Positions 39,825-56,288 of a stretch of DNA of 64,000 bases are shown in pieces. Under the pieces are notes generated by a model that saw only the letters and a list, made by a program, of their open reading frames with translations, searched no databases and was not told the origin of the DNA. Made by a program: the position numbers and the translations under genes. The first letter of the stretch is position 1. Each line of letters starts with the position of its first letter. Origin of the DNA: Dehalococcoidia bacterium (lineage in GTDB: Bacteria > Chloroflexota > Dehalococcoidia > SZUA-161); the NCBI GenBank assembly GCA_014874385.1, contig JACWAE010000075.1, positions 7,693 through 71,692 on the forward strand. Reading direction: 5' to 3'.

Positions 39825-40018
39825 CTGAAACCTCCTAGTCTCCGGGAAAGAATGTGCGGGTATTATAGCTTCTTTCCCCAAGCGCTGCAAAGGTGATTCC
39901 TCGATTCATCTCCCTCAACGGGAGAGGTAGGGAGGTGACAAGAGTGATTAGCACTCTTTCTTGACAGATGAGCACTCGAGTAGTATAAGCAGTCAGATAA
40001 TCAAAACAGGAGAGCATT

Positions 40019-41353: not shown

Positions 41354-41559
41354 AGGCGGGTTTGAAACCAGCTTAACTCAACAATGACGTCTCTCTATGA
41401 GTTGCGAACAAACCTCGCGCTGGCTATCAGCAGCAGATGCCTTGTAATTAAACGCAGGGGCACAGCGCGAAGAAGGGCTTTGATAACGACTCACATAAAA
41501 GGTTATAATAATCACTGTTGTCTGGCAAGCTAATCATATAGAAGAAAACGGGAGTCCGA

Positions 41560-43719
41560 ATGCAAATATTAAAGCAAATCAAATATGAACCCGCCAGAGT
41601 TATAGGCGGATACACAGACCGTATACTCATAGTTGACCTGGGCACTCGGCAAATCGCTATTCAAGAACTGCCACCCGACTTTAAGAACAAATACGTAGGT
41701 GGACGGGGATATGCTTTAAAGCTCATCTGGGACGGCACGACACGGAGTACTCGTTATGACAGTCCTGAAAATATCCTTGTCATGGCCAGCGGACCGCTCG
41801 GCAATGAGCCCGGATTCCCCGGAACCGGTAAATTCATAGTCGGCACTATCTCGCCCCTGACAGACACGTTCATCGATTCCAATGTCGGCGGCCATTTCGC
41901 ACCGCTGCTGAAACTTGCAGGTTTCGATGCCCTAGCTGTTTCCGGCATATCTAAGGAAGATGTGGTCATTCTGGTTGATGGCGATGCAGGGACTATCAGC
42001 ATCGCCGCTGCGCCTTCTTACAGCAAGGAAATAGATGATGGCTCCCTCTCCTTTGGCCAGAGGCTGCTCAAAGATGTCAACGGCGATGAATACAGCGACT
42101 CCGTTGCTGCCGTGAGTGTGGGGAAAGGCGCGTGCAATGCCAGGTTCGGGATTGTTAACAGCCTCTTTTTTGATAGAAAGCGCAGCCGCATCCGCAGCAA
42201 GCAGGCTGGCAGGGGTGGTACAGGGACAGTCATGCGATTCAAGGGACTTCGCGCCATTGTTGCCCGCTCCAGCCTGGCAAAAGCGAATGGAAATAATGCC
42301 GTAGACAGGGAAGGCGTGCGGCAGGCAGGCTCGCTGCTCAAAGAGGTTGTTTCCCAAGCTGACCCCAAGCAGCTCCACCTCTCCGCATGGGGCACCACCG
42401 TTTTATCCGAGTACATGGACAAGTTCCATCTCTTCCCCATCGACAACTACCAGTACGGTCAAAGCCCTGAGTCCTCGAAGCTCTTCGCCAGCGTCTTTCT
42501 TGACAGGTACTTTAGCAAGAAAATACCCGATGGCTGCTACTACGGATGCAACCTTGCCTGCGCCAAGGGTGCTGAAAACGTCGAGCTGACGCGGGGCCCC
42601 CGCGCCGGTCAGAAAGTCTCTATTGACGGACCTGAGTATGAAACCGTGGGCGCAGTCTGCTGCATGGGAATCTTTGACCCTCATTTTGTCATGGAATATA
42701 ACTGGTACTGCGATGAATACAGCCTCGATACCATTTCTACGGGCGTCACAATTGCGTTCTTTATGGAGTGCTTCCAGCGCGGATTTCTGACTGCCGCTGA
42801 CGTAGGTTATGAGTTGACATTCGGCAACATCGAGGCTGTGGACAGGCTGCTGCACGAAATAGCCAGCGGAGAAGGTTTCGGCAAAGTCGTGGGCCAGGGT
42901 GTAGCCAGGGGCAAGAAATGGGTTGCTCAGAAGTATGCTGCCCGACACGGCACTTCTGAACATAATGTTATGGCCGAGCTGAACAAATTCGGCATGGAAG
43001 TAAAAGGGCTCGAGTTCTCCATGTACATTAGCAAAGAGTCACTCGCCCAGCAGGGCGGCTATGGCTTCGCTCTCAAGGGGCCGCAGCATGACGAGGCATG
43101 GCTCATCTTCATAGACCAGGTCCACAAGGAGATGCCCACCCTTGAGCAAAAGGCCAACGCGCTCAAGTGGTTTCCCCTCATCCGCACCTGGTTCAACGCT
43201 ACCGGGCTATGCAAGCTCCCCTGGATAGACGTGCGCAATCCGGAGGCAGCCAGTACCAGTGAGCCTGCCAAGAATCTTCCCACACTGGCCTATTACGTCA
43301 AGTACCTCAATGCGACCACAGGAAGCAACAAGAAGCTGGAAGACATTCTGGAAGATTCCGAGAGACTCTACATCCTGCAGAAACTGATCAATCTGCGTCA
43401 GGGAAAAGGGACCCGGGCCAGCGACCAGATTCCCTGGAGGGCAATAGGGCCGGCCTATTTCAATGAATACGAATTTCGAGCCGAATATTATGATGAATGG
43501 TTAAAAAAACAGCTTGACGGCGATCAAATCCCTGCGAGTCCGGAAGAGCGGCATAGACTTCTCATGGAGAAAAGAATACAGGCCTATCAGAAGCTCTGCG
43601 ACATTGTCTACAAAGAGAAAGGTTTCACCTCCGAGGGTATACCCAGGCGTGAAACCGTGACCAAGTTCGGGCTCATGGACGAACAGGCAAGCCGGCTACT
43701 TAAGGAATTCGGCGTCTGA
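41560..43719 (+). CDS. Aldehyde:ferredoxin oxidoreductase (W/Mo-pterin AOR family)
   Basis: DSNVGG, AGRGG.G, CYYGCNLAC, GPEYE, DTISTG, GPQH, GLCK. Confidence 0.92.
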   Translation: MQILKQIKYEPARVIGGYTDRILIVDLGTRQIAIQELPPDFKNKYVGGRGYALKLIWDGTTRSTRYDSPENILVMASGPLGNEPGFPGTGKFIVGTISPLTDTFIDSNVGGHFAPLLKLAGFDALAVSGISKEDVVILVDGDAGTISIAAAPSYSKEIDDGSLSFGQRLLKDVNGDEYSDSVAAVSVGKGACNARFGIVNSLFFDRKRSRIRSKQAGRGGTGTVMRFKGLRAIVARSSLAKANGNNAVDREGVRQAGSLLKEVVSQADPKQLHLSAWGTTVLSEYMDKFHLFPIDNYQYGQSPESSKLFASVFLDRYFSKKIPDGCYYGCNLACAKGAENVELTRGPRAGQKVSIDGPEYETVGAVCCMGIFDPHFVMEYNWYCDEYSLDTISTGVTIAFFMECFQRGFLTAADVGYELTFGNIEAVDRLLHEIASGEGFGKVVGQGVARGKKWVAQKYAARHGTSEHNVMAELNKFGMEVKGLEFSMYISKESLAQQGGYGFALKGPQHDEAWLIFIDQVHKEMPTLEQKANALKWFPLIRTWFNATGLCKLPWIDVRNPEAASTSEPAKNLPTLAYYVKYLNATTGSNKKLEDILEDSERLYILQKLINLRQGKGTRASDQIPWRAIGPAYFNEYEFRAEYYDEWLKKQLDGDQIPASPEERHRLLMEKRIQAYQKLCDIVYKEKGFTSEGIPRRETVTKFGLMDEQASRLLKEFGV

Positions 43720-43763
43720 GGTAAGCCGGGAAGAAACATCGATTACAACGTAACGGCTCCGGC

Positions 43764-44015
43764 ATGAAGATAGTAGTTTCAATTAAGTTCTTCGGGATGC
43801 AGCGTGCTCTAACTAAAACCGATGGTATAGATATGCCTATCACGGAAACGGCGAGAGTGACCGATGTCCTGGAATACGTCAGGAGCCGATATCCCGAACT
43901 CCCTTTAGACCAGGAGACGGTCCTTATCACCGTCAACCACGAACAGGCATCTCTTGACACACTGCTGAAGCCCAATGACACCGTCTCATTTCTGCCCTTC
44001 ATCTCTGGCGGTTAG
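43764..44015 (+). CDS. MoaD/ThiS-family sulfur carrier
   Basis: Ubiquitin-like size with C-terminal SGG; follows the AOR gene. Confidence 0.9.
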   Translation: MKIVVSIKFFGMQRALTKTDGIDMPITETARVTDVLEYVRSRYPELPLDQETVLITVNHEQASLDTLLKPNDTVSFLPFISGG

Positions 44016-44062
44016 CCGCAATCTGCTCAAAGCTCAGCAACCCTATCGCGCCTAATAACATT

Positions 44063-44164
44063 TCCCTCCCTTGACGTGAGAGGCTAGAGCTTGTCCTGAG
44101 CTCGTCGAAGGATTGTCGAAGGATGAGGGTGAAACGTAGGGGGCGTTCAATTGAACGCCCCTAC
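44063..44164. repeat. Composite repeat cluster (CCCTTGACG..GAGAGG element with nested TCCTGAG..CGAAGGA insert, plus GTAG REP)
   Basis: GTAGGGGGCGTTCAATTGAACGCCCCTAC at 44136-44164; a related CCCTCAACGGGAGAGG copy lies near 39910. Confidence 0.7.
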
Positions 44165-44229
44165 AATTTTACCTTGCCCTCACTCTCATTCTGTGTTACA
44201 CTCAATGGGATATTTTCAGGAGGTCTCCT

Positions 44230-45207
44230 TTGAAAAAAGGTCGTGTCTTCTCCGGAGCCAGGCCTACGGGCAAGCAGCATATCGGTAACTATCTGGGGGC
44301 TATTCAGAATTATGTCAAGCTTCAGCAGGACTACGATTGCATCTACTGCATCGTGGACATCCATGCCCTGACCACCCTCGAGGATACCCATATGCTCAAG
44401 GCCAATACCTACGATATGATGCTGGACTGGCTGGCAGCAGGGCTCGACCCCGAGAAAAGCATCCTCTTCGTGCAGTCCCATGTCCCCGAGGTTATGGAGC
44501 TTCACACTCTGCTCAGCATGGTCACTCCTCTGGGCTGGCTGCTCCGCGTCACCACCTTCAAGGAAAAGGTCAAGATGCAGCCTCACAACGTAAACTACGG
44601 TCTTGTTGGCTACCCGGTGCTGATGACCGCAGACATCGTGCTCTACAAAGCGGACACCGTGCCCGTGGGCGAAGACCAGTTGCCCCACCTGGAGATAGCG
44701 CGCGAGATCGTGCGCCGCTTCAACAACATCTTCGGCCCCACCTTCCCCGAGCCCCAGGCCAAGCTTACCAACTTCCCCATGGTGCTGGGTCTGGATGGTG
44801 AAAAGAAAATGAGCAAGAGCCTCGATAACCAGATCGAACTCGCAGCCTCTGCCGAGGAGACCACCAGGAGGATAATGGCCGCCTTCACCGACCCTGCCCG
44901 CAAGTTTCGCAACGACCCCGGCCATCCAGAGGTGTGCAATGTCTATAGCCTGCACCATTTCTACACATCTTTGAAACTGGACGAAATCGCAAAGAAGTGC
45001 AGAGCAGCGGAAATCGGCTGCGTCGAGTGCAAGCGAATGCTCGCTGAGAACATAAACAAAGCCCTTGCCCCATTCCGAGAGAAAAGGGCGCAATTAGCCG
45101 AGAAATCCGGGTATGTAGATGAAGTTCTCGCGGACGGGGCTCGTCGCGCCCATGCCATAGCCAGAGAGACCATCATAGAGGTCAGGGGTAAGATAGGATT
45201 ACCATGA
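44230..45207 (+). CDS. trpS: Tryptophan--tRNA ligase
   Basis: PTGKQHIGNY (HIGH), YPVLMTADI, VGEDQ, KMSKS. Confidence 0.97.
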   Translation: MKKGRVFSGARPTGKQHIGNYLGAIQNYVKLQQDYDCIYCIVDIHALTTLEDTHMLKANTYDMMLDWLAAGLDPEKSILFVQSHVPEVMELHTLLSMVTPLGWLLRVTTFKEKVKMQPHNVNYGLVGYPVLMTADIVLYKADTVPVGEDQLPHLEIAREIVRRFNNIFGPTFPEPQAKLTNFPMVLGLDGEKKMSKSLDNQIELAASAEETTRRIMAAFTDPARKFRNDPGHPEVCNVYSLHHFYTSLKLDEIAKKCRAAEIGCVECKRMLAENINKALAPFREKRAQLAEKSGYVDEVLADGARRAHAIARETIIEVRGKIGLP

Positions 45208-46010
45208 CTGCCCTGCCTTTGTCCCAAAGTGGTAGAAGCGCTCTCGAGGTAGCTGCGGAGGCAGCGAGGCAAGCCGGCGAAACCCTCAAAACACATTTCC
45301 AGGAGAAAACGCAGGTAAAGTACAAGGGTCGAGCCAATATCGTTACCGATACAGACCTGCGTTCAGAGGAAATACTCAAATCGTTCCTGCTAGCCGAGTA
45401 CCCCGACCATAGCATACTCTCTGAGGAATCTCAGGCTATCAATGGCAACTCAAGCTATAAATGGATTCTCGACCCACTTGACGGCACGAATAACTACTCC
45501 TTCGGCATACCCTTCTTCTCCATAGTAATCGCCCTCACCGAGGGGAAAGACGTTTTACTGGGCATTGTCTACGACCCCCTGCGCGATGAGATGTTCTCAG
45601 CCCAAAGGCGCAAGGGGGCTACCCTCAACAACTCGCCCATCCACGTCACCAGGAAAAAGACTGTTCGGGAGTCGCTCATCGGCCTGGACCTGGGCTATGT
45701 CGATGAAAAAGGCCAAAAGTCGCTCGAGTTTATAACCTCACTCTGGCCAGAAATGTACGCTTACAGAATTATGGGCTCCGCGGCGCTGGGCATGGCTTAC
45801 GCTGCCTGCGGACGGCTCGATATTTACTTTCATCTTCTGTTATACCCCTGGGAGCTAGCCTGCGGTCAATTGCTGGTAACTGAAGCCGGTGGGGTGGCGA
45901 CCGACCTGGACGGCAAGCCGTTGAAAGTAGGGCAGGGCTCCGTCATCGCCTCCAACAAGGCAGTTCACGCCGATTTCCTCCGGATACTCAAAGAAAGAAA
46001 CCTGGGGTAA
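45204..46010 (+). CDS. suhB: Inositol monophosphatase family protein
   Basis: SEE, WILDPLDGTNN, GSAAL; PWE in place of PWD. Confidence 0.85.
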   Translation: MTALPLSQSGRSALEVAAEAARQAGETLKTHFQEKTQVKYKGRANIVTDTDLRSEEILKSFLLAEYPDHSILSEESQAINGNSSYKWILDPLDGTNNYSFGIPFFSIVIALTEGKDVLLGIVYDPLRDEMFSAQRRKGATLNNSPIHVTRKKTVRESLIGLDLGYVDEKGQKSLEFITSLWPEMYAYRIMGSAALGMAYAACGRLDIYFHLLLYPWELACGQLLVTEAGGVATDLDGKPLKVGQGSVIASNKAVHADFLRILKERNLG

Positions 46011-46013
46011 TTT

Positions 46014-46094
46014 GTAGAGGCAATTCATGAATTGCCCCTACCTATCGCACTCCCGACATGATTAAGGTAGAGGCACAGTATACTGTGCCTCTAC
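46014..46094. repeat. Two GTAG REP palindromes between convergent genes
   Basis: GTAGAGGCAATTCATGAATTGCCCCTAC and GTAGAGGCACAGTATACTGTGCCTCTAC. Confidence 0.85.
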
Positions 46095-46138
46095 CTATTC
46101 TCCTCGTGGCTAGCGGGAAACCCCAACCCAGCCTTTTT

Positions 46139-46819
46139 TCATTCGCCCTCTTTGTGCTTCTTGGTTTCAGCCATGAATTGTTCCAGCTTGTCATCGCTTC
46201 CTGATACTATCAGAACATCACCCTGCCTTACTATCTCCACCCGGTCAGGTGTAACTATTACCTCTTTTCCTCTTTGAATTAACAAAACTGCCAGACTCCA
46301 TTTGCCCCCACGACCCAACCCTATATCAGACAACGATTTCCCCACGAAGTATGGCGATACTGCCAGTTTAGAGACCCCATAGCTGGGGGCCACCGGTATA
46401 TAGTCCTGAACGTCTGTCAAAATCAGACTATGCGCAACTCTAATCCCCATCTCGCGCTCAGGGTAAACAACCTTATCCACCCCGATTTTGTCAAGTATGG
46501 TCCCATGCAAATCATTCTCAGCTCTGGCTATCACATAGGGAATCCCCAGCTTTTTCAGCAGGATTGCACACAACACACTATTCTGAATCGCCTCCCCCAT
46601 CGTCACTATAGCCACATCGAAGTTGGCGACACCAAGCTCCCTGAGCACAGCCTCGTCTGTGGCATCTGCCTGCACAGCATGCGTTATCTGAGTTGATATG
46701 TTTTGAACCTTTTTCTCATCATCGTCCACGGCCATCACATCATGCCCCATGCTGAAAAGCGTGGTAGCCAGACTTATTCCGAACCTTCCCAGTCCTATAA
46801 TCAACACCTGCCTTTTCAT
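46139..46819 (-). CDS. ktrA: Ktr/Trk potassium uptake regulatory subunit (RCK domains)
   Basis: IIGLGRFG, ADATDE, PEREMG, C-terminal RCK_C. Confidence 0.88.
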   Translation of the reverse strand: MKRQVLIIGLGRFGISLATTLFSMGHDVMAVDDDEKKVQNISTQITHAVQADATDEAVLRELGVANFDVAIVTMGEAIQNSVLCAILLKKLGIPYVIARAENDLHGTILDKIGVDKVVYPEREMGIRVAHSLILTDVQDYIPVAPSYGVSKLAVSPYFVGKSLSDIGLGRGGKWSLAVLLIQRGKEVIVTPDRVEIVRQGDVLIVSGSDDKLEQFMAETKKHKEGE

Positions 46820-46828
46820 GTCAGCCTC

Positions 46829-48391
46829 CTATCCTATCCTTACTTGATCTTGCGGGTACCGATATTCACTCGGCTGCTGACGCTGGATGAGGGCCAATAC
46901 CAAAACGAGAGGCCCCAGCCGCCCGATAAACATAACAGCGGTAATAATCAACCGACCCGCCACAGATAAATCAGGGGTTATCCCTGTTGATAAGCCAACG
47001 GTTCCGAAGGCGGAAACCGTCTCAAACAAAAGCCTTAAAAATCCGAATCCCTTATCGGTGATTGTCAGCACGAAAACTACTATGAAAATGAGAGTTATAG
47101 ACAACATCACCAATGATAGCGCCCGGTGTATCTGCTGATTTGCGAATTCCCTGCCAAATGCTCCGGCATGTTCCTTTCCCCTGATTGTACTCCATATTGT
47201 TGCGACAAGCATGCCAAAGGTATTGACTTTTATACCTCCTGCGGTCGACCCTGCGGCCCCGCCAACGAACATGAGAAGTATAGTAAAGAATTGCGAATAG
47301 CTTTCCATACTGCCTATGTTAATACTGGAGAATCCCGCAGTTCTAGGGGTCACAGACTGGAAGAAGGCGTTAAGGACCTTATAGGGAAGTGAGAGAGGGC
47401 CAAGAGTATCCGCGTTACCGTACTCCGTCAATAAAATAGCCACAGTACCTAAAACCAGTAGCCCTAAAGTGGTGACCAGCACTATCTTGGTATCAAGGGA
47501 GAGTCTGCCGAAGCGTCGCATCCTGCCCACATCGGCCACGACTATAAAGCTGATGCCGCCGAGAATAATAAGCGCTGCGGTCGTAAGTATTACCGTTGTA
47601 TCCGTTTGATAGCCCAATAAACTGCGAAAATTGCCAAAGAGGTCTAGCCCGCAGTTGTTGAAAGCCGAAACGGCATGAAATATTGCCCTCCATGCGGCTG
47701 TCCCCGTCGGATTCTGCACGGAGAACCGGATATAAAAGATTGCAGCGCCTATGGCTTCAACTATGAAGGTAAAAAGTAGAATCCTTCTCACCAGCTTGAC
47801 CATGCCCCCCAGCCTCTCCGTGCCTAATGACTGTCCGATTAGCCACCTCTCCCGAAGCCCGATCCTACGGCCTAATAACAGTAACAGGAGAGTAGCACTG
47901 GTCATGAACCCCAGGCCGCCGACCTGAATCAGTACCAGAATAACCCCTTGGCCGAAGCTGCTCCAGTAGGTCCCTGTGTCTACTACGGCCAGCCCCGTAA
48001 CGCATACGGCTGAAGCTGCGGTAAAGAGAGTGTTAACAGGAGAGGTAAATTGCCCCGTTTTGCTCGCTACAGGTAGCATAAGCAGAATAGTGCCGAGGAT
48101 TATTACACCAGCAAAGCCATATATCATCATCAAAGGGGACAAGCCAGGTTGCTTAGGTCTGGGGATTGGAGGCAGAGGGATAAGCCACGGCCTGACCCTG
48201 GCTACACGGAATACCCTGTCTCCGAGCCTTCGCTCTGCTGGCTTTCGCTTCCAAACCGGCGGTATCTCGGGCAGTTCCAGTTCAATCTCTTCTTTTTTAG
48301 AAGACGATGTGAGCTTATCTTTTAGCCACCTGCCAATTCGTCCGATATTCATATTGCTCCCTATTTTACCTCTTTTGTCCACCTGAGTCAT
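46829..48391 (-). CDS. ktrB: Ktr/Trk potassium uptake membrane subunit
   Basis: SAVCVTGL, SAFNNCG, PRTAGF, STAGGIK, SAFGTVGLS pore loops; long basic N-terminal extension. Confidence 0.9.
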   Translation of the reverse strand: MTQVDKRGKIGSNMNIGRIGRWLKDKLTSSSKKEEIELELPEIPPVWKRKPAERRLGDRVFRVARVRPWLIPLPPIPRPKQPGLSPLMMIYGFAGVIILGTILLMLPVASKTGQFTSPVNTLFTAASAVCVTGLAVVDTGTYWSSFGQGVILVLIQVGGLGFMTSATLLLLLLGRRIGLRERWLIGQSLGTERLGGMVKLVRRILLFTFIVEAIGAAIFYIRFSVQNPTGTAAWRAIFHAVSAFNNCGLDLFGNFRSLLGYQTDTTVILTTAALIILGGISFIVVADVGRMRRFGRLSLDTKIVLVTTLGLLVLGTVAILLTEYGNADTLGPLSLPYKVLNAFFQSVTPRTAGFSSINIGSMESYSQFFTILLMFVGGAAGSTAGGIKVNTFGMLVATIWSTIRGKEHAGAFGREFANQQIHRALSLVMLSITLIFIVVFVLTITDKGFGFLRLLFETVSAFGTVGLSTGITPDLSVAGRLIITAVMFIGRLGPLVLVLALIQRQQPSEYRYPQDQVRIG

Positions 48392-48485
48392 CCATCAGAC
48401 GATGTCATCCGCCAGATAGCAAGTGTAGCGTGGCCATTCGCTTACGAAAGATGGGGGCCATCCCCATATTCATCGCTGCGCAAGT

Positions 48486-48514
48486 TTGAAAAAGGCACTT
48501 TTTGATGCTATATT
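48486..48514 (+). promoter_or_regulatory. Sigma70-type promoter of the leader/double-cubane reductase transcript
   Basis: TTGAAA-17 nt-TATATT with extended -10 TG. Confidence 0.7.
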
Positions 48515-48556
48515 ATTTGCAGACCTTTGAAAATAAATGACCAGGAGGTGAGAGCA

Positions 48557-48685
48557 GTGACCTGTGCGCGTCTTTACTTCACTTGAGTTTGAACCAAAAG
48601 GCCTGATGCAGGTTCTGCATCAGTCATCTGCTCGAAGGATCTCCGTGTCCAGAGAGAGGCGAGGGAGGTAGCCATAGCGTTTTAG
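48557..48685 (+). CDS. Putative selenocysteine-containing leader peptide MTCARLYFTUVUTKRPDAGSASVICSKDLRVQREAREVAIAF
   Basis: AGGAGGTG SD 6 nt before GTG; in-frame TGA at 48584 and 48590; SECIS-like hairpin immediately downstream; frame then open to TAG 48683-48685. Confidence 0.65.
48603..48623 (+). promoter_or_regulatory. Putative bacterial SECIS element
   Basis: Perfect 9-bp stem CTGATGCAG-GTT-CTGCATCAG. Counting the second UGA as 1-3, positions 19-24 are GCAGGT, as in E. coli fdhF SECIS (G23/U24). Confidence 0.7.
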
Positions 48686-48707
48686 CCATTGGGCTTAAGA
48701 CGCCTGT

Positions 48708-48745
48708 AAAGCGGTGGTGCGGAGTCTTCGGCCATCGCTTTTTTG
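48708..48745 (+). terminator. Intrinsic terminator in the 5' leader (attenuator)
   Basis: AAAGCGGTGGT(G)CGGA-gtc-TTCGGCCATCGCTTT followed by a T run, about 40 nt before the downstream ATG. Confidence 0.8.
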
Positions 48746-48781
48746 TTTGCTTCAAAGTAACTGAAAGGAGTTTAGTACATA

Positions 48782-50056
48782 ATGACAAACGATAACAGGC
48801 AAATGTGGACTGATTTAGGAATAGACCTCGAGCGACACGAAATGCTGCTTAATGCCCTGGGGCCGGCTTATAAAGAGATCTATCTCGCCCAGATGAATCG
48901 TCCTGAAGGGATGGAGTTTTTTGACTTCGTCGTTGGAGATATTCACGGCATTAGAGTGCGAGAGTTGCGCCAGCACGCCAAGGAAGGCGGGAAAGTAGTA
49001 GCCACCTACTGCGTCTTTGTACCAGATGAGATAGTTCTGGCTGCAGGCGCCGTTCCGGTGGGTCTTTGCGCGGGGACTAATTTTTCCATTCAGGCAGCAG
49101 AGCAAGTTCTACCGCGCAACACCTGCGACCTGATCAAGTCCTCCTTCGGCTTCAAGCTGGGACGCACCTGCCCGTATATTCAGACAAGTCATCTCATTGT
49201 GGGGGAGACTACCTGTGACGGCAAGAAAAAGATGTTTGAGATCCTGTCTGAGTACCAGCCTGTCTATGTGATGGAGGTGCCCAACAAGAAGAACAGAATA
49301 AGTCGTGACCTGTGGCTATCAGAAGTAGTTGCCTTCAAAGACGTTGTTGAGAAGCTGACTGGCAACAAGATCACGGAGGAGAAGCTAGCCCAGGCCATCA
49401 AGCTGGTGAATGGCAAGCGTCGTGCTCTCCAGCGACTGTATCAAGCCCGAAAAGCTAACCCAGTTCCCATCAGCGGAAAGGATGCACTACTGGTAACCCA
49501 GGTTTCCTTCTACGATGACGTTGCTCGTGACACCCAACAGATCAATGCTCTTTGCGATGAGTTGGAGAAACGAATTACCAATAGAAAGGGAGTCTTTCCG
49601 CCAAACTGCCCTCGTATCCTCATCTCGGGGTGTCCTATGGCTATCCCCAATTGGAAGCTGCACCATCTTCTGGAAACGTCTGGTGCTGCCGTGGTTTGCG
49701 AAGAGTCATGCATCGGCACGCGGGCTTTCAGCGACCTGGTGGCTGAGGACAAGCGGAGCATGGACGACCTGCTTAAAGCCATCGCCGATCGCTACATGCA
49801 AATCCACTGTGCCTGTTTCACGCCGAACACTGAGCGGATAGAAGATATCTTAAGGCTGGCGAAGGAGTACAAAGTTGACGGTGTGGTTCATTACAACTTG
49901 CTGTACTGTCATACCTACGCAAATGAAGCGGTGAGGGTAGACAAAGCCCTGGAGAAGGAGGGCATACCACTCCTCCGCGTGGAGACTGACTATAGTGATG
50001 ATTCGGGGCAACTAAGGAACAGAATCGATGCCTTCCTGGAGATGATACAGGAGTAG
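48782..50056 (+). CDS. Double-cubane-cluster anaerobic reductase (2-hydroxyacyl-CoA dehydratase/HgdB superfamily)
   Basis: YCVFVP, GLCAG, NTCDLIKS, ETTCDGKKK, CEESC, CACF, YCHTY, ETDYS; AAGGAG SD. Confidence 0.8.
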   Translation: MTNDNRQMWTDLGIDLERHEMLLNALGPAYKEIYLAQMNRPEGMEFFDFVVGDIHGIRVRELRQHAKEGGKVVATYCVFVPDEIVLAAGAVPVGLCAGTNFSIQAAEQVLPRNTCDLIKSSFGFKLGRTCPYIQTSHLIVGETTCDGKKKMFEILSEYQPVYVMEVPNKKNRISRDLWLSEVVAFKDVVEKLTGNKITEEKLAQAIKLVNGKRRALQRLYQARKANPVPISGKDALLVTQVSFYDDVARDTQQINALCDELEKRITNRKGVFPPNCPRILISGCPMAIPNWKLHHLLETSGAAVVCEESCIGTRAFSDLVAEDKRSMDDLLKAIADRYMQIHCACFTPNTERIEDILRLAKEYKVDGVVHYNLLYCHTYANEAVRVDKALEKEGIPLLRVETDYSDDSGQLRNRIDAFLEMIQE

Positions 50057-50239
50057 CTATCAAGGCATGACGGCACGGTCAAATTCCAGTCGAGAGAATA
50101 ATGATGCTGGTTGTAGATGGCTACCGACAACCTTTGCGGGCACCACCTTTCGAACCTAAACAAGAAGCCCAGAATGTCTACAGCGTAGGGCTCTCAACCT
50201 CTCGGTTTTTTCTGAACGCTTTACGATTGCCTGTAAAAA

Positions 50240-50293
50240 TTGACAACAAACAAAACAGGTGTAATAATGAATTAGCAACTACGCAGATGTTAA
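50240..50293 (+). promoter_or_regulatory. Promoter and probable ArsR/SmtB operator
   Basis: TTGACA-17-AATAAT followed by TTAGCAACTACGCA, repeated (13/14) at 50693-50706. Confidence 0.6.
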
Positions 50294-50303
50294 GGAGTAA
50301 GCC

Positions 50304-50666
50304 ATGATGACTAAAGCTGAAGACAAATGCGAGATATGGGCGGTGGACCAAAAGAAAGTGACCAAGACGAAGAATCGCCTGCCTACTGATGAGACATTTA
50401 CAGTTCTGGCAGAGACTTTTGGGGCGCTGGCTGATTCTAACCGGGCTAAGATACTGCATTCTTTAGTAGACCAGGAATTATGCGTCTGCGATATTGCGTG
50501 TGTCGTTGGAATCTCGGAATCTGCCATATCACAGCACCTTCGAATACTGCGAACTCTTCGCCTGGTCAAGCAACGCAAGGAAGGGCGCATGATGTATTAT
50601 TCTTTGAATGACGACCATATCCGTCAGCTTCTAGATATATGCTTAGAGCATACAAAGCATACTTAG
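50304..50666 (+). CDS. ArsR/SmtB (CadC/CzrA-like) metal-sensing repressor
   Basis: ELCVCDIA, SAISQHLR, YSLNDDHI...EH. Confidence 0.93.
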   Translation: MMTKAEDKCEIWAVDQKKVTKTKNRLPTDETFTVLAETFGALADSNRAKILHSLVDQELCVCDIACVVGISESAISQHLRILRTLRLVKQRKEGRMMYYSLNDDHIRQLLDICLEHTKHT

Positions 50667-50685
50667 TGGAGCTTTTTATTTTGCA

Positions 50686-50713
50686 TATCGATTTAGCTAC
50701 TACGCAATCGATA
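50686..50713. promoter_or_regulatory. Second probable ArsR operator before the ATPase gene
   Basis: TATCGATT-tagctactacgc-AATCGATA inverted repeat whose core matches the upstream site. Confidence 0.55.
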
Positions 50714-50736
50714 AATCAAGAAAGGAAGGCACCAGG

Positions 50737-53046
50737 ATGATAAGAGAAAGAGCCTTTAGAGTGGAGGGTATGGACTGTGCTGACTGCGCTCTTAAGATAG
50801 AAAGCGCTGTTTCTAAGGTTAAGGAGGTAGCATCAGCTCAGGTTTTCCTATCATCCTCAAAATTGGTGGTCAAACCTGCCAGCGATGGGCTGGACATAGG
50901 AGAAATAGTCAAAGCAGTGGAGAGGCTTGGCTATAAAGCGGAGCCAGAGGAGGCCACCCAATCCCTATCCCTTTATGTCGAGGGCATGGACTGTGCTGAC
51001 GAGGTGGCAGTCATCCAGAAGAAATTCAAAAGCTTGCCCGGACTCCTGAATTCCGAAGTGAATCTTGCCAGTCAGAAAGTGGACGTTACCTACGACCCCT
51101 CTCGGCTTTCTTCTCAGGATATTATCAAATCTATTGCGGAAACTGGTATGAATGCTCGGCTGGCTAAGGCCAGAACCAGGGCAAAAGCCTGGTGGCAGGA
51201 CTTTCGGGTTAAGCTCATTGCAGCTTCAGGCATTCTCTTACTTATTGCTTTTGTCCTGGAACGAGTGGGTTTAGACCATAATATAGCCAGGTCCATATAT
51301 GGCGCCTCGATTCTCGTTGGGGGTTATTATCCGGCTAAAATGGCTCTGGCCGGACTCCGTGCCAGAACACTCAACATTTATACGCTGCTGGTAGTAGCCA
51401 CAATCGGAGCCATTGTCCTGGGGTTCTGGGATGAAGCAGCCGTTCTTGTTTTTGTCTATACATGGGGAGCCATCCTCGAAACTTATGCCACAGAAAGAGC
51501 GAGAGGCTCTTTGAGGCTTTTAATGGAACTGGTACCCCGGGAAGCACTGGTGAAAAGAAATGGCCAGGAGCTAACCCTGCCGGTGGAGGAAGTACAGGTG
51601 GGGGAGACCGTAATTGTACGACCTGGCGAGAAGGTCCCTCTTGATGGAACAGTTGTAGCTGGTTCTTCTTCGGTAGATCAAGCTCCCATAACCGGTGAAT
51701 CAATCCCGGTAAGTAAGACTCCAGGTGACTTAGTCTTCGCTGCCAGCATTAACCAGCGTGGTTCTCTGGAAGTAAAAGTTGGCAAACTGTCCCAGGATAC
51801 GACCCTGGCCCGGATAATCCATTCGGTGGAGAGGTCAGAGGCTAAAAAGTCCAGCTACCAGCACTTCGCCGAGCGATTCGGCCGGATATACACACCCACA
51901 ATGTTTTGCGTAGCAGTAATTGTCGCTGTGGTACCCTGGCTATTGGGTGAGCCTTTTACTCCCTGGTTCTACCGGGCACTAGTGGCACTGGTGGTCTCTT
52001 GTTCCTGCGGCCTGGCACTCTCGGTGCCTATCTCGGTGCTAGCTGCCGTAAGCGCCGCGGCCAGAAAGGGCGTTCTAATCAAAGGCGGTGCCGACCTCGA
52101 AGCCGCTGGCCGTGTTGAAGCAGTGGTTTTTGATAAGACAGGGACACTGACAATAGGTCTGCCCAGGGTGACGGATGTTATTGCCTTAAATGGCACAGCC
52201 CCTGGGCTTCTTTCTGTAGCAGCTTCCGTTGAGTCGCGCTCGGAGCACCCGCTGGCAGATGCTATCCTGAGAAAGGCACGTGAAGATGGAGCCGAGGTGA
52301 TACCGTTGAAAGAGTTTGAAGCTTTAGTCGGAATGGGAGCCAGAGGCCGGATTAATGGCAAGGATTACTATGTTGGGAGTAAGCGCCTCGCTGACCAGAT
52401 GTTGATTCCCCTGGTCAAAGCGGAGAAGGAGATAACCCGACTTCAGTATGAAGGTAAGACTACCATCCTGGTAACAGGTGAGGGTAATATCCTGGGAATA
52501 ATCGGCGTTGCGGACCAATTACGACCGGAGGCTAAAGACACGATAGTCAAGCTCAAAAAAGCCGGAATGAAGCGAGTCGGCATGTTGACCGGAGATAATG
52601 AAGGGACTGCTCGGGCAATTGCAGCCCAAGCCGGTCTAGACGAATATCGGTCTCAACTGATGCCGGAAGATAAAGTGGAGGCGGTCAGGCAGTTAAAACA
52701 GAAATATGGCAGGATTGCCATGGTGGGTGATGGAGTCAATGATGCCCCGGCTATGGCAGCCGCCGATGTAGGAATCGCCATGGGCGCGGCCGGTACCGAT
52801 GTGGCTCTGGAGACTGCTGACCTAGCGCTGATGTCAGACGATCTTTCTAAGATATCCTTTGCCCTTGGTATCAGCCGGAAGGCCATGAACATTATCAAAC
52901 AGAATGTGGCCGTCTCACTGGCTATTGTCGCCTTAGTCGTCACGCTGGCTCTAATTGGTAAGATAGGTCTGGTACCAGGGCTTCTCATAAACGAAGGTAG
53001 CGCGCTTCTGGTTATGATTAACGGCCTACGCTTGCTGAGGAGCTAG
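50737..53046 (+). CDS. Heavy-metal P1B-type ATPase (CadA/ZntA-like) with two HMA domains
   Basis: GMDCADC and GMDCADE, TGES, SCSC, DKTGTLT, SEHP, GDGVNDAP. Confidence 0.93.
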   Translation: MIRERAFRVEGMDCADCALKIESAVSKVKEVASAQVFLSSSKLVVKPASDGLDIGEIVKAVERLGYKAEPEEATQSLSLYVEGMDCADEVAVIQKKFKSLPGLLNSEVNLASQKVDVTYDPSRLSSQDIIKSIAETGMNARLAKARTRAKAWWQDFRVKLIAASGILLLIAFVLERVGLDHNIARSIYGASILVGGYYPAKMALAGLRARTLNIYTLLVVATIGAIVLGFWDEAAVLVFVYTWGAILETYATERARGSLRLLMELVPREALVKRNGQELTLPVEEVQVGETVIVRPGEKVPLDGTVVAGSSSVDQAPITGESIPVSKTPGDLVFAASINQRGSLEVKVGKLSQDTTLARIIHSVERSEAKKSSYQHFAERFGRIYTPTMFCVAVIVAVVPWLLGEPFTPWFYRALVALVVSCSCGLALSVPISVLAAVSAAARKGVLIKGGADLEAAGRVEAVVFDKTGTLTIGLPRVTDVIALNGTAPGLLSVAASVESRSEHPLADAILRKAREDGAEVIPLKEFEALVGMGARGRINGKDYYVGSKRLADQMLIPLVKAEKEITRLQYEGKTTILVTGEGNILGIIGVADQLRPEAKDTIVKLKKAGMKRVGMLTGDNEGTARAIAAQAGLDEYRSQLMPEDKVEAVRQLKQKYGRIAMVGDGVNDAPAMAAADVGIAMGAAGTDVALETADLALMSDDLSKISFALGISRKAMNIIKQNVAVSLAIVALVVTLALIGKIGLVPGLLINEGSALLVMINGLRLLRS

Positions 53047-53106
53047 TCAACTCGTGTTAATGGCCGACGCTGAGCGTTATCAAAAGCAGAACGGAGATCA
53101 GTAGCC

Positions 53107-53355
53107 ATGGAATGCATAGGGTGGCACTGGACTCAGAAAATGTCCTTGAGAGAGATTGCATCCCGAATGAAACTAAGCGAGGTTACAGAGTTTTCGACTG
53201 GGGACATTGCTGGTGTTTTTAAAAAGAGCATAGTTGTTGTGGTACATCCTATTTGGGGCTCCTCCAAGGAAGCCGAGAAAATATTAATATACGCCCATCA
53301 TATTCCTGACGGAGGAAAGAACGTGCTATTTGAGGAATTAACTAGAGAATTATAG
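53107..53355 (+). CDS. Small hypothetical protein
   Basis: GGAG SD; 82 aa, co-oriented with its neighbours. Confidence 0.45.
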   Translation: MECIGWHWTQKMSLREIASRMKLSEVTEFSTGDIAGVFKKSIVVVVHPIWGSSKEAEKILIYAHHIPDGGKNVLFEELTREL

Positions 53356-53416
53356 GAAAGAGCGAAATACCTTGACAGCCTGCTAGAAGCAGTCTAGCAT
53401 GTTAGCTAATAAAAAA

Positions 53417-53701
53417 ATGAATGATATAGCTTGGTATGCTGTTGGGGCGGTAGCAGCGGCTCTCACCAGCTTCGGTTTTGTGCCACAGATTGTGAAAATA
53501 TGGCAGACAAAGTCGGTTAGAGACGTAAGCCCTATCACCATTCTCCAATTTATTGCCGGGGTATTGCTCTGGACTGTCTACGGAGTGCATCTTAGAGACC
53601 CTGTAGTAATAGCTGCAAACCTGGTATCGCTAGCTATCCTGATCGTAGCTCTGCTCCTCTACTTCCGCTTCTTCAAAAAGAGCAAGCCCGAAAACCGCTA
53701 G
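53417..53701 (+). CDS. SemiSWEET/PQ-loop family transporter
   Basis: FVPQIVK..TKSVRDVS, LWTVYG, AN; 3 TM helices. Confidence 0.88.
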   Translation: MNDIAWYAVGAVAAALTSFGFVPQIVKIWQTKSVRDVSPITILQFIAGVLLWTVYGVHLRDPVVIAANLVSLAILIVALLLYFRFFKKSKPENR

Positions 53702-53714
53702 CTGAACACCCTTG

Positions 53715-55409
53715 CTAAATCCCCTCCTCTCTTAGAGCGTTGACAATGTACTGAATCTCCTGAGTAGTCAGGCCAAAGCGGTGCAGTGTATGACGGATAA
53801 TCTCCAGCCCCGCCTCCAGCTCGGGGCGCACCATCTCAGCGACCCCCAATTCACGCAATGTCTTAATATCCTCATCTCGATGCACCCGGGCCACTACGTC
53901 GAGCCTGGGATTTATTCTGCGAGCATTCGCCATTGCCAGCCTTGTAGCTATCGGGTCGGGGAACGTAATCACCATCACCCTGGCCCTTTCCAGCCCTGCC
54001 CGCGCCAGGATTTCAGGATTAGCAGCATCACCATATATACAAGGAACACCCCTGGCACGCACCGGATCTAAATTTTTGGGGTCTATATCTACAACCAAAT
54101 AAGGGAAATTTCTACGTTCCAGCACCTTCCCCAGGTTTCGAGCCACCTGTCCGTAGCCGCAGATCACCACATGTCCCGACAGGCGCTTGCTTTCATCCGA
54201 AAAACCGGGGTCGGTATGCGAGGCAAATAGCCGCGACACCCCTCTCACCTGAATCAGTCGATGATACAACCCCGATACCAGGCCCATGCCAAAGGGTGTC
54301 AGCAACATGGTGATGCCTGCAGCAGCCAGGGTCAAAGAGTACAGGTGTTTGGAGATGATACCCATGTCCAGGGCAACAGCAGCTATTACAAAGCTGAACT
54401 CTCCTATCTGGAACAGGCCGCTCCCCGCAAAGAGAGTGGTCTTGCTGCTGTAGCCGAAAGCCCAAACTATAACAGAGACTATGATAAACTTGCCTACCAC
54501 TATTGCCGCCACTACACTCCCAACTTCCGCTGGATTCGCCACAATGAAATGGGGGTCCGCGAGCATGCCCAAAGAGACGAAGAAAAGAATGGCAAATATG
54601 TCCCTCAAAGGCCCGATGTCCGCACGAGCCTGGTGAGCATACTCAGCTTCACTCACCAGCAGCCCGGCCAGGAATGCGCCCAGCGCTACGGAGAGCCCGA
54701 CATAGTAAGCTCCAAAGGCTGCTCCAAAGACCAGGCACACCACTGTCAGCACGAAAAGCTCCCTGGAGCGTCTTTCGGTCACCCTTCTCATGAACCAGGG
54801 CAGCACCCATAATCCCAGCACGAATATCATCGCTAGAAACGAGAGAGCTCTCAGGAGATCCCATCCCCAGGCCCTCGTAAATACGCCCCCGTCGCCCCCC
54901 AGAGAAGGGAGGATAAGCATTACAATGACCACGCTGAGGTCCTGCACCAGAAGGATGCCAGCCATCACCCGCCCGTGAGGGCTTCCCAGTTCGCCGCGCT
55001 CTATGAGCGTTTTCAGCACTATGATAGTGCTGCTCATGGATATGAAAAGGCCGAACAGGAGAGACTCTCTAACCGGCCAGTGAAGCAGCCAGCCTAAACC
55101 AAAGCCCAATCCCGTAGTAGCGATTATCTGGGCAGCGCCTCCTAACGTAGCGACCCTGCCTATCTGCCTGAGGGTCTTCAGGGAAAACTCCATACCCAGA
55201 GTGAACATCAGAAGCACCACGCCGATGGTAGCGAGGGTTTCAACATCAGCCACATCGTGAATCAAGTGCAGACCGTAAGGCCCGATGGCAATGCCCACCA
55301 GGAGATAGCCCACAATGACGGGCAGCCTAAGGTGGTGCGCTATCATGCCGCCGACAAGGGCAGCCCCCAGTACTATGGCCATGTCCTCCAACAAGCTCAG
55401 CTCAGTCAT
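53715..55409 (-). CDS. CPA2 cation:proton antiporter with TrkA-N domain (KefC/YbaL-like)
   Basis: GYLLVGIAIGP, LLVQD, FFVSLG, QIGEFSF, ICGYG, YGDA. Confidence 0.92.
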   Translation of the reverse strand: MTELSLLEDMAIVLGAALVGGMIAHHLRLPVIVGYLLVGIAIGPYGLHLIHDVADVETLATIGVVLLMFTLGMEFSLKTLRQIGRVATLGGAAQIIATTGLGFGLGWLLHWPVRESLLFGLFISMSSTIIVLKTLIERGELGSPHGRVMAGILLVQDLSVVIVMLILPSLGGDGGVFTRAWGWDLLRALSFLAMIFVLGLWVLPWFMRRVTERRSRELFVLTVVCLVFGAAFGAYYVGLSVALGAFLAGLLVSEAEYAHQARADIGPLRDIFAILFFVSLGMLADPHFIVANPAEVGSVVAAIVVGKFIIVSVIVWAFGYSSKTTLFAGSGLFQIGEFSFVIAAVALDMGIISKHLYSLTLAAAGITMLLTPFGMGLVSGLYHRLIQVRGVSRLFASHTDPGFSDESKRLSGHVVICGYGQVARNLGKVLERRNFPYLVVDIDPKNLDPVRARGVPCIYGDAANPEILARAGLERARVMVITFPDPIATRLAMANARRINPRLDVVARVHRDEDIKTLRELGVAEMVRPELEAGLEIIRHTLHRFGLTTQEIQYIVNALREEGI

Positions 55410-55584
55410 CTCGCTCCTTAGAGAATTCGGGCACTGCTATGGCAGCCGGGCACGCGTGGAAAGCATGATACATATTAGACGTCTTAAAAGCTACGGGTGG
55501 AAAGAATATTAAAGGATAGACGAAACAGTTCGTGACTAAAACAGATGCCTCGTGCTCCAAAGATATATAATCAGTCATTTCGCA

Positions 55585-55794
55585 CTAGGATAGCCCGTGT
55601 ATGGCGATACGGCGTATGGTTGAGGCAGGTATAGGAACACCCTTCACCATAGCCCCATCATAGCCCCACCTCCGCCACAGGCGTGGGTGACGTTTAAGCT
55701 CCCGCCGGATGAACTCTATCTCGCTATCCGAAAGCTGGCCTGCCCATCCCGGCTGAAGCAGTTTCCTATCTGGGCGTATCGCAGTAACTGCCAT
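55585..55794 (-). CDS. Small hypothetical protein
   Basis: GAAGGA SD; 69 aa. Confidence 0.5.
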   Translation of the reverse strand: MAVTAIRPDRKLLQPGWAGQLSDSEIEFIRRELKRHPRLWRRWGYDGAMVKGVPIPASTIRRIAIHGLS

Positions 55795-55880
55795 ATCGTT
55801 CCTTCAGCGCTGCACCGTTTTTGTTCTCCTATCCTCAGTAGTGCAGCTTTTCCGTGGCTGCTCCACATTGGACGACACAT

Positions 55881-56288
55881 TCAATCCTTCTTACCTTTGT
55901 AAATCGAGAACGTTCCCATCGCCTTAGCCGCCAGATGCCCCCCGTTTTTTATCTCTGCTTCCATCACCGCAATCCTCTTACCCCTGTGAATAACTCTCGA
56001 CTCACAGGTAAGGATACCAGATGACACAGCCTTAAAATAGCAGATGCTAATCTCAATCGTCAAGAATAACTCATCTTCATTTACAAGAGAATACAGTGCT
56101 GCACCCATGCCCGAGTCAGCCAGAGTATAGATGGCTCCTCCGTGCACGATCCCGGCAGCGTTAAGCAACTTTTTGTCCACTTCCAGGACGCACAGACTGT
56201 TACCATCCTCGACCTTGGTGTAAGTTACGCCTACCATGTCACGGAATGGACTGAGGCCTTTTGCCGCTATAGAGTATTGCCTTGCCAT
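55881..56288 (-). CDS. PaaI-family hotdog thioesterase
   Basis: NAAGIVHGGAIYTLAD. Confidence 0.92.
   Translation of the reverse strand: MARQYSIAAKGLSPFRDMVGVTYTKVEDGNSLCVLEVDKKLLNAAGIVHGGAIYTLADSGMGAALYSLVNEDELFLTIEISICYFKAVSSGILTCESRVIHRGKRIAVMEAEIKNGGHLAAKAMGTFSIYKGKKD

Follow-up and report, generated by a model that had tools for sequence, protein, structure and literature searches.

A conserved leader with tandem UGA codons and one SECIS-like hairpin: a candidate selenocysteine-sensing transcription attenuator in Chloroflexota

We describe a conserved leader in a 64,000-nt stretch of DNA (the window, to whose positions coordinates refer unless stated otherwise) from a Dehalococcoidia bacterium of the Chloroflexota (assembly GCA_014874385.1, contig JACWAE010000075.1, positions 7693 to 71,692, forward strand). 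The leader holds a short open reading frame (ORF) with two in-frame UGA codons separated by a single codon, a hairpin behind them that resembles a bacterial selenocysteine insertion sequence (SECIS), and helices that are conserved and covary among relatives; the SECIS register matches that of the host's own elements, and the genes downstream are related to selenium. We consider it moderately probable that this is a ribosome-mediated transcription attenuator, whose regulatory codons are two selenocysteine (Sec) UGAs on one SECIS hairpin and which senses Sec-tRNA/SelB.

Results

Two UGA codons and one hairpin in a short leader ORF

The leader ORF (48557..48685, on the plus strand, as are all parts of the leader described here) opens with GTG and reads 9 codons, UGA, GUU, UGA, and 30 further codons before a TAG, that is, 42 sense or Sec codons with both UGAs decoded. 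The GTG at 48557 lies 7 nt 3′ of the GGAGGT core (48544–48549) and 5 nt 3′ of the full Shine-Dalgarno (SD) sequence AGGAGGTGA (48543..48551). Both the first UGA (48584..48586) and the second (48590..48592), with a GTT between them (48587–48589), are in frame with this start codon; the sequence and the tandem UGA-x-UGA that the original prediction had placed at 48584–48623 are present as it described them. The TAG (48683..48685) is reached only once both UGAs have been read through.

The SECIS-like hairpin (48603..48623) consists of a perfect 9-bp stem (48603–48611 paired with 48615–48623) and the loop GUU (GTT, 48612–48614). Its stem begins 10 nt after the second UGA and 16 nt after the first. 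With the U of the second UGA as nt 1, the stem occupies nt 14–34, nt 19–24 read GCAGGT, and the loop is G23-U24-U25, which is the canonical register; from the U of the first UGA, the loop G is 29 nt away.

The hairpin keeps the register of the host's SECIS elements

A bacterial SECIS requires selA, selB, selC, and selD, all of which the window's genome has: selB and selA adjoin a tRNA-Sec gene, and selD contains one in-frame TGA. Two formate dehydrogenase alpha genes (fdhA1 and fdhA2) have a TGA where Sec classically lies, a position spanned by Pfam domains, and their elements score 63.4 and 36.5 bits with the Rfam family SECIS_3. A genome-wide search for in-frame TGA codons followed by hairpins proved too noisy, and only fdhA1, fdhA2, and selD, all verified, were kept for comparison.

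All three host elements have G23/U24 in the apical loop. The exact register that the original prediction had claimed from the second UGA is therefore identical to that of known selenoprotein genes in the same genome (3/3), the comparison that it had proposed as a check. The fdhA1 element (stem nt 15–33, loop G23-U24-C25) almost coincides with the leader hairpin when the latter is counted from the second UGA, and the hairpin starts 10 nt after the UGA in selD, 11 nt in fdhA1, and 14 nt (core stem) in fdhA2. Two features expected of bacterial SECIS elements, an upper stem ∼11 nt after an in-frame UGA and a loop G-U at about nt 23–24, are found in the leader hairpin, the latter counted from the second UGA; the third, a bulged U in the 5′ strand, is absent. 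In the Escherichia coli fdhF element, as given in the accessible sections of PMC8659212, the upper stem-loop lies 11 nt after the UGA, with a bulged U17 and a loop G23/U24, which agrees with the features named originally. The remark that the leader lacks the bulged U17 is true of the hairpin but does not amount to a defect: the hairpins of fdhA1, fdhA2, and selD are also without it (0/3), so the bulge is not a defining SECIS feature in this organism.

The Rfam SECIS families give no match in 40000–56000 at E up to 10, and no other credible family is called there. As a control, SECIS_3 detects both fdhA elements, but no Rfam family detects the host selD SECIS either, and we therefore do not count the miss against the leader. 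A blastn comparison of the host fdhA Sec region with E. coli genomes gave no DNA match. The two Sec-containing fdhA genes are located at C93:20670–24779 and C97:13277–16243 of the window's genome; one is fused to an N-terminal 2Fe-2S/pyridine-nucleotide-disulphide-oxidoreductase module (1369 aa).

UGA-x-UGA prevails among genome and metagenome leaders

Because a DNA search of 40 relatives returned a single match, in a genome of another genus (G021), a protein-anchored search and a covariance model were needed. The protein-anchored scan kept 80 loci, of which 79 were scanned, and found the same leader in 10. The first 12 leaders were aligned to give a covariance model. In a class-wide sample of 151 genomes the model matched in 8, and in a phylum-wide sample of 151 it matched in 4, of which one belongs to a different class; in the window's genome it found no second leader copy at E up to 1. 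Two single-UGA leaders came from a relaxed scan, for a genome total of 22. Metagenomes were scanned with a pattern in which the SD motif and the hairpin core were fixed and UGAs were not required, and the 80 loci obtained comprise 72 leaders, four copies of one unrelated sequence, and four false matches.

In the first 12 leaders TGA-NNN-TGA is invariant and the SD motif nearly so. Over the full sets, UGA-x-UGA occurs in 18/22 genome leaders and 59/72 metagenome leaders, so the arrangement of one SECIS-like hairpin behind two UGAs 6 nt apart, to which the original prediction had drawn attention, is conserved. The remainder (4/22 and 13/72) have a single UGA, and none is without any. The first stop is UGA, never UAA or UAG, in all 22 genome and all 72 metagenome leaders. 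Tandem UGAs are always exactly one codon apart, with 16 different codons found between them among the metagenome leaders. Counted from the second UGA, the loop G is at nt 23 in 10, nt 26 in six, and nt 25 in two of the 18 tandem genome leaders, and at nt 23 in 48, nt 22 in six, and nt 26 in five of the 59 tandem metagenome leaders; insertions and deletions in this spacer are mostly multiples of 3.

The single-UGA leaders have their UGA at varying distances from the loop G: 23–26 nt in L048, L052, L120, L182, and L187; 29 nt in 10 metagenome loci; 32 nt in L118; and 37 nt in L177. Each of the two tandem positions thus occurs alone somewhere, which argues, without proving it, that one hairpin can serve both UGAs.

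Three further observations concern the family as a whole or single members. The codon preceding the first UGA (in the window, in the region 48572–48583) is a Thr codon (ACC, ACU, or ACG) in 18/22 genome leaders. From the start codon to the first UGA, the length is held at 8–10 codons in both genome and metagenome leaders, approximately one ribosome footprint. Leader L118 (∼1620–1830 of its locus) has lost the second UGA (TGA to CGA), and tandem repeats of ∼60 nt replace its terminator; it is probably a decayed copy.

Covarying helices join the SD, the hairpin, and a terminator

We obtained an RNAalifold consensus and pair counts for the 12 leaders and compared them with slid controls and 500 shuffles. 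Over all helices, 95.4% of cells are paired, versus 35%–54% in the slid controls, with nine compensatory pairs, and none of the 500 shuffles reaches the observed value. Helix P1 pairs the SD (GGAGGU), which doubles as its 5′ strand, with an anti-SD ∼90 nt downstream (94.4% of cells paired); P2/P3 pair GAGC and the start-codon region with GUCAU...GCUC directly 3′ of the hairpin (90.6%). The 3′ strands of P3 (GUCAU), P2 (GCUC), and P1 (anti-SD AUCUCC) make up what we call segment A, placed at 48623..48650 by the alifold consensus. The SECIS-like hairpin itself is paired in 97.9% of cells with three compensatory pairs, and its loop-closing pair is G-C in seven leaders and A-U in five. An intrinsic terminator is predicted at 48711..48744 (stem-loop 48711–48738, T6 48739–48744); across the leaders its stem is paired in 98.3% of cells with three compensatory pairs, and a U-run follows. 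In the window, the TAG of the leader ORF lies past segment A and 25 nt 5′ of this stem.

Two hallmarks of leader-peptide attenuators are therefore present: a short, SD-led ORF with codons for the presumed sensed amino acid 5′ of the regulated gene and a conserved terminator between the two. Of the alternative pairings open to segment A, the duplex with the SD region is predicted at −19.2 to −30.1 kcal/mol, with z-scores below −1.9 in 11/12 leaders. The other is a pairing with segment C (about 48715–48730), in the 5′/apical part of the terminator, for which A would provide the antiterminator 5′ strand. This A:C pairing is found in 73.5% of cells versus 41%–50% in slid controls, with five compensatory pairs. 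A:C duplexes are also more stable between cognate segments than between non-cognate ones (mean −18.7 versus −15.1 kcal/mol among genome leaders; 0/10,000 permutations as low), a result that replicates in 53 metagenome leaders (−16.3 versus −14.6 kcal/mol; 0/5000). Two leaders, G021 and L116, differ in the terminator loop, and segment A is altered to match. We regard these sequence comparisons as moderate support for an antiterminator, the third hallmark. A second GGAGG-like tract 3′ of A (segment B) was considered as an anti-antiterminator and dropped, its duplex z-scores being close to 0 in most of the 12 leaders.

The frame that would be entered by readthrough of the UGAs is open across A and has its stop before the terminator in 19/19 genome leaders, versus 20/38 for the other two frames, and in 52/53 metagenome leaders, versus 29/53 and 34/53. 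Together with the 3-nt steps of the spacer, the open frame would mark a stretch that is traversed by ribosomes.

The leader is neither a chance pattern nor well explained as a peptide gene

By itself, the combination of two TGAs and a palindrome is not rare. Counting TGA-NNN-TGA followed within 4–20 nt by a hairpin of at least 8 bp, we find three cases in the window versus 0.93 ± 0.96 in 200 first-order Markov surrogates, 60% of which contain at least one; the significance of the leader must therefore rest on conservation and context. Chance could thus account for the bare pattern, and the palindrome could alternatively be a terminator for the minus strand, on which our scan scores it as terminator-like. 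Both readings are ruled out and merit hardly any credence: the whole architecture is kept at 22 genome and 72 metagenome loci, with covariation, and no minus-strand gene reads into the palindrome, the minus-strand trkH (46829–48391) pointing away from it. A different objection is that the ORF encodes a functional UxU mini-selenoprotein of 34–46 residues, a redox protein or selenium carrier co-expressed with selenium genes. The UxU motif is indeed conserved, a Thr codon precedes it in 18/22 leaders, and the post-UGA frame is retained in 16/18 tandem genome leaders. However, the residues before UxU vary at every codon position, the entropies of the pre-UGA codons in the genome leaders being about equal (1.35, 1.51, and 1.60 bits at positions 1, 2, and 3), and x can be any of 16 codons. 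Cys replaces Sec at neither UGA in any of the 22 genome or 72 metagenome leaders. The residues conserved after the UGAs are those that the RNA helices impose, and they change completely in G021 and L117, where the frame over the hairpin is shifted; furthermore, an intrinsic terminator stands between the ORF and the gene behind it. Neither the conserved peptide nor the Cys-containing homologs expected of a small selenoprotein are thus found. The pre-UGA variability, the helix-dictated residues, and the two frame shifts leave a functional selenopeptide very improbable, and the sequences fit a sensory leader far better.

This outcome bears on the original prediction, which had weighed a sensor against a mini-selenoprotein with its own function and had suggested asking whether the peptide or only the UGAs and RNA structure are conserved. 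The UGAs and helices are conserved and the peptide is not, which favors the sensor over a peptide with a function of its own. The further suggestion that a Cys at codon 3 might add sulfur sensing is not borne out, since only 3 of the first 12 leaders have it.

The other two TGA-NNN-TGA plus hairpin coincidences, at 44124 (plus strand) and 44188 (minus strand), lie just upstream of a tryptophanyl-tRNA synthetase gene (44230–45207); Rfam calls no family at either in the scan of 40000–56000.

Selenium-related genes follow the leader

The gene that we propose to be regulated (48782..50056, plus strand) encodes a double-cubane-cluster anaerobic reductase of the Pfam HGD-D family (PF06050), with an NF040772 score of 510.5 bits against a cut-off of 350. 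The leader in G021 precedes an ortholog 74% identical to it. Elsewhere the leader is found 5′ of a YedF-like selenium-metabolism protein (TIGR03527, 130 bits), 5′ of ArsP_1-type permease genes, and, on metagenome contigs, 5′ of putative selenium transporters of the YedE family (TIGR04112, 321–386 bits in 5/7 proteins tested). Among 41 callable downstream ORFs are 19 reductases, nine YedF-like proteins, one permease, and 12 unclassified ORFs, ∼10 of which look YedE-like.

The same genome encodes a reductase paralog (79% identical) that has no leader. It belongs to a cluster on contig C112 (locus L032, 2747–7478) with a divergent LysR_Sec_metab gene (NF040786, 283 bits), in which genes for an activase and a DsrE-like protein and then selD(Sec) come after the paralog. 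As judged from gene order, one enzyme family may answer to two distinct selenium-linked control systems within a single genome. In the accessible text of Haft (2022), double-cubane reductases are reported to co-occur tightly with SelD, a finding for which no cause is given there, and a selenium-containing cofactor is listed as a formal possibility. Lin et al. (2015; PMC5322559), in the sections available, place a 2-hydroxyglutaryl-CoA dehydratase subunit and an activase among the neighbors of selenium genes.

In locus L024 (genome G046), a 94-nt tRNA-Cys gene (1362–1455, anticodon GCA) with room for a long variable arm lies directly 5′ of a double-cubane reductase gene 53% identical to that in the window, and a similar sequence lies 5′ of a reductase homolog in L023 (G045). 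It resembles tRNA-Sec-like tRNA-Cys species that Mukai and co-workers are said to have described. By analogy, a tRNA-Cys next to the reductase could be a further link of this enzyme family to selenium or to Cys recoding.

Upstream of the leader SD, a consensus scan predicts a promoter-like site (48486..48514, plus strand; TTGAAA, 17 nt, TG-TATATT; 10/12 matches). An alternative ORF in another frame (48564–48671, 35 aa) was rejected: it has no properly spaced SD and meets early stops in 8/19 relatives. Immediately 3′ of the reductase gene (50101–53046) lie a 68-aa ORF that matches no family, an ArsR/SmtB metalloregulator, and a P-type ATPase that has two HMA domains.

Discussion

What is new here is the predominance of tandem UGAs across a Chloroflexota-wide family, with a register that matches the host SECIS elements, and the covarying architecture of terminator, antiterminator, and SD sequestration, with the double-cubane reductase as its main target. 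In the attenuator that we favor, a ribosome would load on the strong SD and translate the 8–10 codons as far as UGA-x-UGA. With SelB-GTP-Sec-tRNA(Sec) scarce, RF2 would terminate at a UGA, and ribosomes, by cycling on the leader's 5′ part, would hold the SD region occupied; segment A, uncovered and not captured by the SD region, could then pair with the 5′/apical part of the terminator, and the gene would be ON. With Sec plentiful, both UGAs would be decoded, and the ribosome would melt the SECIS, cross A, and stop between A and the terminator, so that the gene would be OFF. In the absence of translation, A would pair with the SD and start region (P1–P3) and the terminator would form, again giving OFF. 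With two UGAs, the OFF decision would hinge on Sec being inserted twice in succession, which could, as the original prediction proposed, sharpen the threshold. We infer that SelB binds the hairpin and that Sec is inserted at either UGA; for the polarity we rely on the readthrough-frame constraint, on the covariation of A with C, and on the expectation that shortage should induce an importer.

More tentatively, one SECIS serving two UGAs one codon apart might gauge the Sec-tRNA(Sec) pool kinetically, an idea that we find doubtful. A SelB complex already docked on the hairpin would serve the first UGA, and the second would be passed only if a fresh SelB-GTP-Sec-tRNA reloaded the hairpin before RF2 acted; the switch would then read the flux of charged tRNA(Sec), not its mere presence. 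On this reading, the regulon (YedE, YedF-like protein, ArsP-type permease, and reductase) would cast the double-cubane enzyme as one that acquires selenium and feeds SelD, thereby assigning it a physiological function.

Several points weigh against the attenuator as we have drawn it. The leader sequences are related, so the shuffles overstate significance, and A:C covaries more weakly than the other helices (14/500 shuffles reach the observed value). In minimum free energy (MFE) folding, masking the SD and the 5′ ORF abolishes the terminator in only 4/12 leaders, and masking them with a ribosome also placed at the readthrough stop does so in 6/12. The A:SD helix is stronger than A:C in 11/12 leaders, so the ON state needs an SD region that is continuously occupied by ribosomes, which we assume. 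The readthrough stop lies 15–45 nt past the core of A, and a ribosome waiting there would therefore leave A uncovered in most leaders. Finally, if Sec insertion is inefficient, as has been reported for E. coli, few ribosomes would get past two serial UGAs, which would make for a weak OFF state.

The mixed outcome of masking, the strength of A:SD, and the uncovered A at the final stop keep alive a rival with the same parts and the opposite polarity, in which expression follows selenium sufficiency, as might suit a double-cubane enzyme that needs selenium. Here slow SelB-dependent decoding would stall the lead ribosome when Sec is present, a second ribosome would queue on the SD and start codon, and A would be freed to form the antiterminator (ON); with Sec scarce, fast release by RF2 would let A capture the SD and the terminator form (OFF). 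The fixed distance of 8–10 codons from start to first UGA, about one ribosome footprint, would suit such queuing, and with A:SD as the strongest alternative pairing a released ribosome should indeed give OFF. The cofactor that Haft lists as a formal possibility would fit as well, and there is a precedent in the selenium-dependent, translation-coupled transcription of fdhF-Sec in Treponema primitia, as far as the accessible part of PMC3892789 describes it. We nevertheless think this polarity unlikely. A pure stall gives no reason for a readthrough frame that is open in 19/19 and 52/53 leaders; a putative importer, YedE, is among the targets, and the usual logic for importers is induction on shortage; and segment B, as an anti-antiterminator partner of A, finds no support (z ∼0 in most leaders). 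Less probable still, and in our view improbable, is an account on which SelB binds the hairpin as an operator or decoy and Sec is not productively inserted, the UGAs being mere stops and SelB altering the folding or translation of the leader. The SECIS-like loop is conserved, the hairpin abuts helix P3, so that bound SelB could influence formation of P1–P3, and the selAB element discussed below is a precedent. On this account, however, nothing would demand that the first stop always be UGA (22 genome and 72 metagenome leaders) and mostly doubled, that the spacer between the second UGA and the loop change mostly in 3-nt steps (register 23 or 26 in 16/18 genome leaders; 23 in 48, 26 in five, and 22 in six of the 59 tandem metagenome leaders), or that the readthrough frame be constrained. 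Nor does the leader look like a selAB-type operator, which has no decoded UGA and places its hairpin at the regulated ribosome-binding site (RBS): the leader hairpin is ∼160 nt 5′ of the reductase RBS, with the terminator in between.

Bacterial selenium-status sensing is largely unexplained. For it, Lin et al. (2015; PMC5322559) put forward no more than a LysR-type regulator. The full-text literature, with subscription journals and supplements outside the search, yielded neither a leader or attenuator based on Sec codons nor two UGAs on one bacterial SECIS, and term look-ups in two 2026 overviews (PMC13188914 and PMC13326102), PMC5322559, and the Haft preprint gave neither a Sec-codon attenuator nor a two-UGA bacterial SECIS.

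If the attenuator that we favor is real, a leader that reads out Sec decoding itself would sense the 21st amino acid directly and without a protein. Classical attenuation would then reach as far as a stop codon that is recoded, and the leader would provide a natural case of a single bacterial SECIS serving two UGAs. Its regulon offers testable functional leads for double-cubane reductases. The element is short and modular and could report Sec-insertion capacity.

Comparison with known systems sets the proposed switch in context. The E. coli leaders trpL, hisL, and pheL are leader-peptide transcription attenuators of amino-acid operons. Like them, the UGA leader has a short SD-led ORF with tandem codons for the amino acid that would be sensed, a mutually exclusive terminator and antiterminator, a third pairing that would terminate the untranslated leader, and targets that would supply what is sensed. 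Unlike theirs, its sensing codons are stops, recoded via a SECIS hairpin and SelB; shortage would lead to release or waiting at UGA instead of a stall at a sense codon; and its "protector" helix ties up the SD and start codon of the leader itself. A SECIS-like element that mediates SelB-dependent translational repression lies in the E. coli selAB 5′ untranslated region (UTR). In both cases a SECIS-type leader hairpin would feed the status of the Sec machinery back onto selenium genes, but in the UGA leader the hairpin stands behind in-frame UGAs in a translated ORF, is followed by a terminator, and is ∼160 nt from the regulated RBS.

With fdhF-type SECIS elements, as outlined in the accessible sections of PMC8659212, and with host fdhA1, fdhA2, and selD, the leader shares a hairpin 10–11 nt after a UGA and an apical G23/U24. 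It differs in that the hairpin is located in a non-conserved mini-ORF and not in an enzyme gene and follows two UGAs 6 nt apart; it also differs from fdhF in lacking the bulged U, as do the host elements, and in having no Rfam SECIS match, as is true of host selD. Perhaps the closest parallel in logic is T. primitia fdhF-Sec, whose transcription, in the available part of Matson et al. (2013; PMC3892789), is under selenium control by translational coupling. There, too, decoding of UGA as Sec decides downstream transcription. However, that UGA lies inside the enzyme gene and the effect is one of polarity, whereas the UGA leader would be a dedicated leader and terminator switch that controls genes for proteins that are not themselves selenoproteins.

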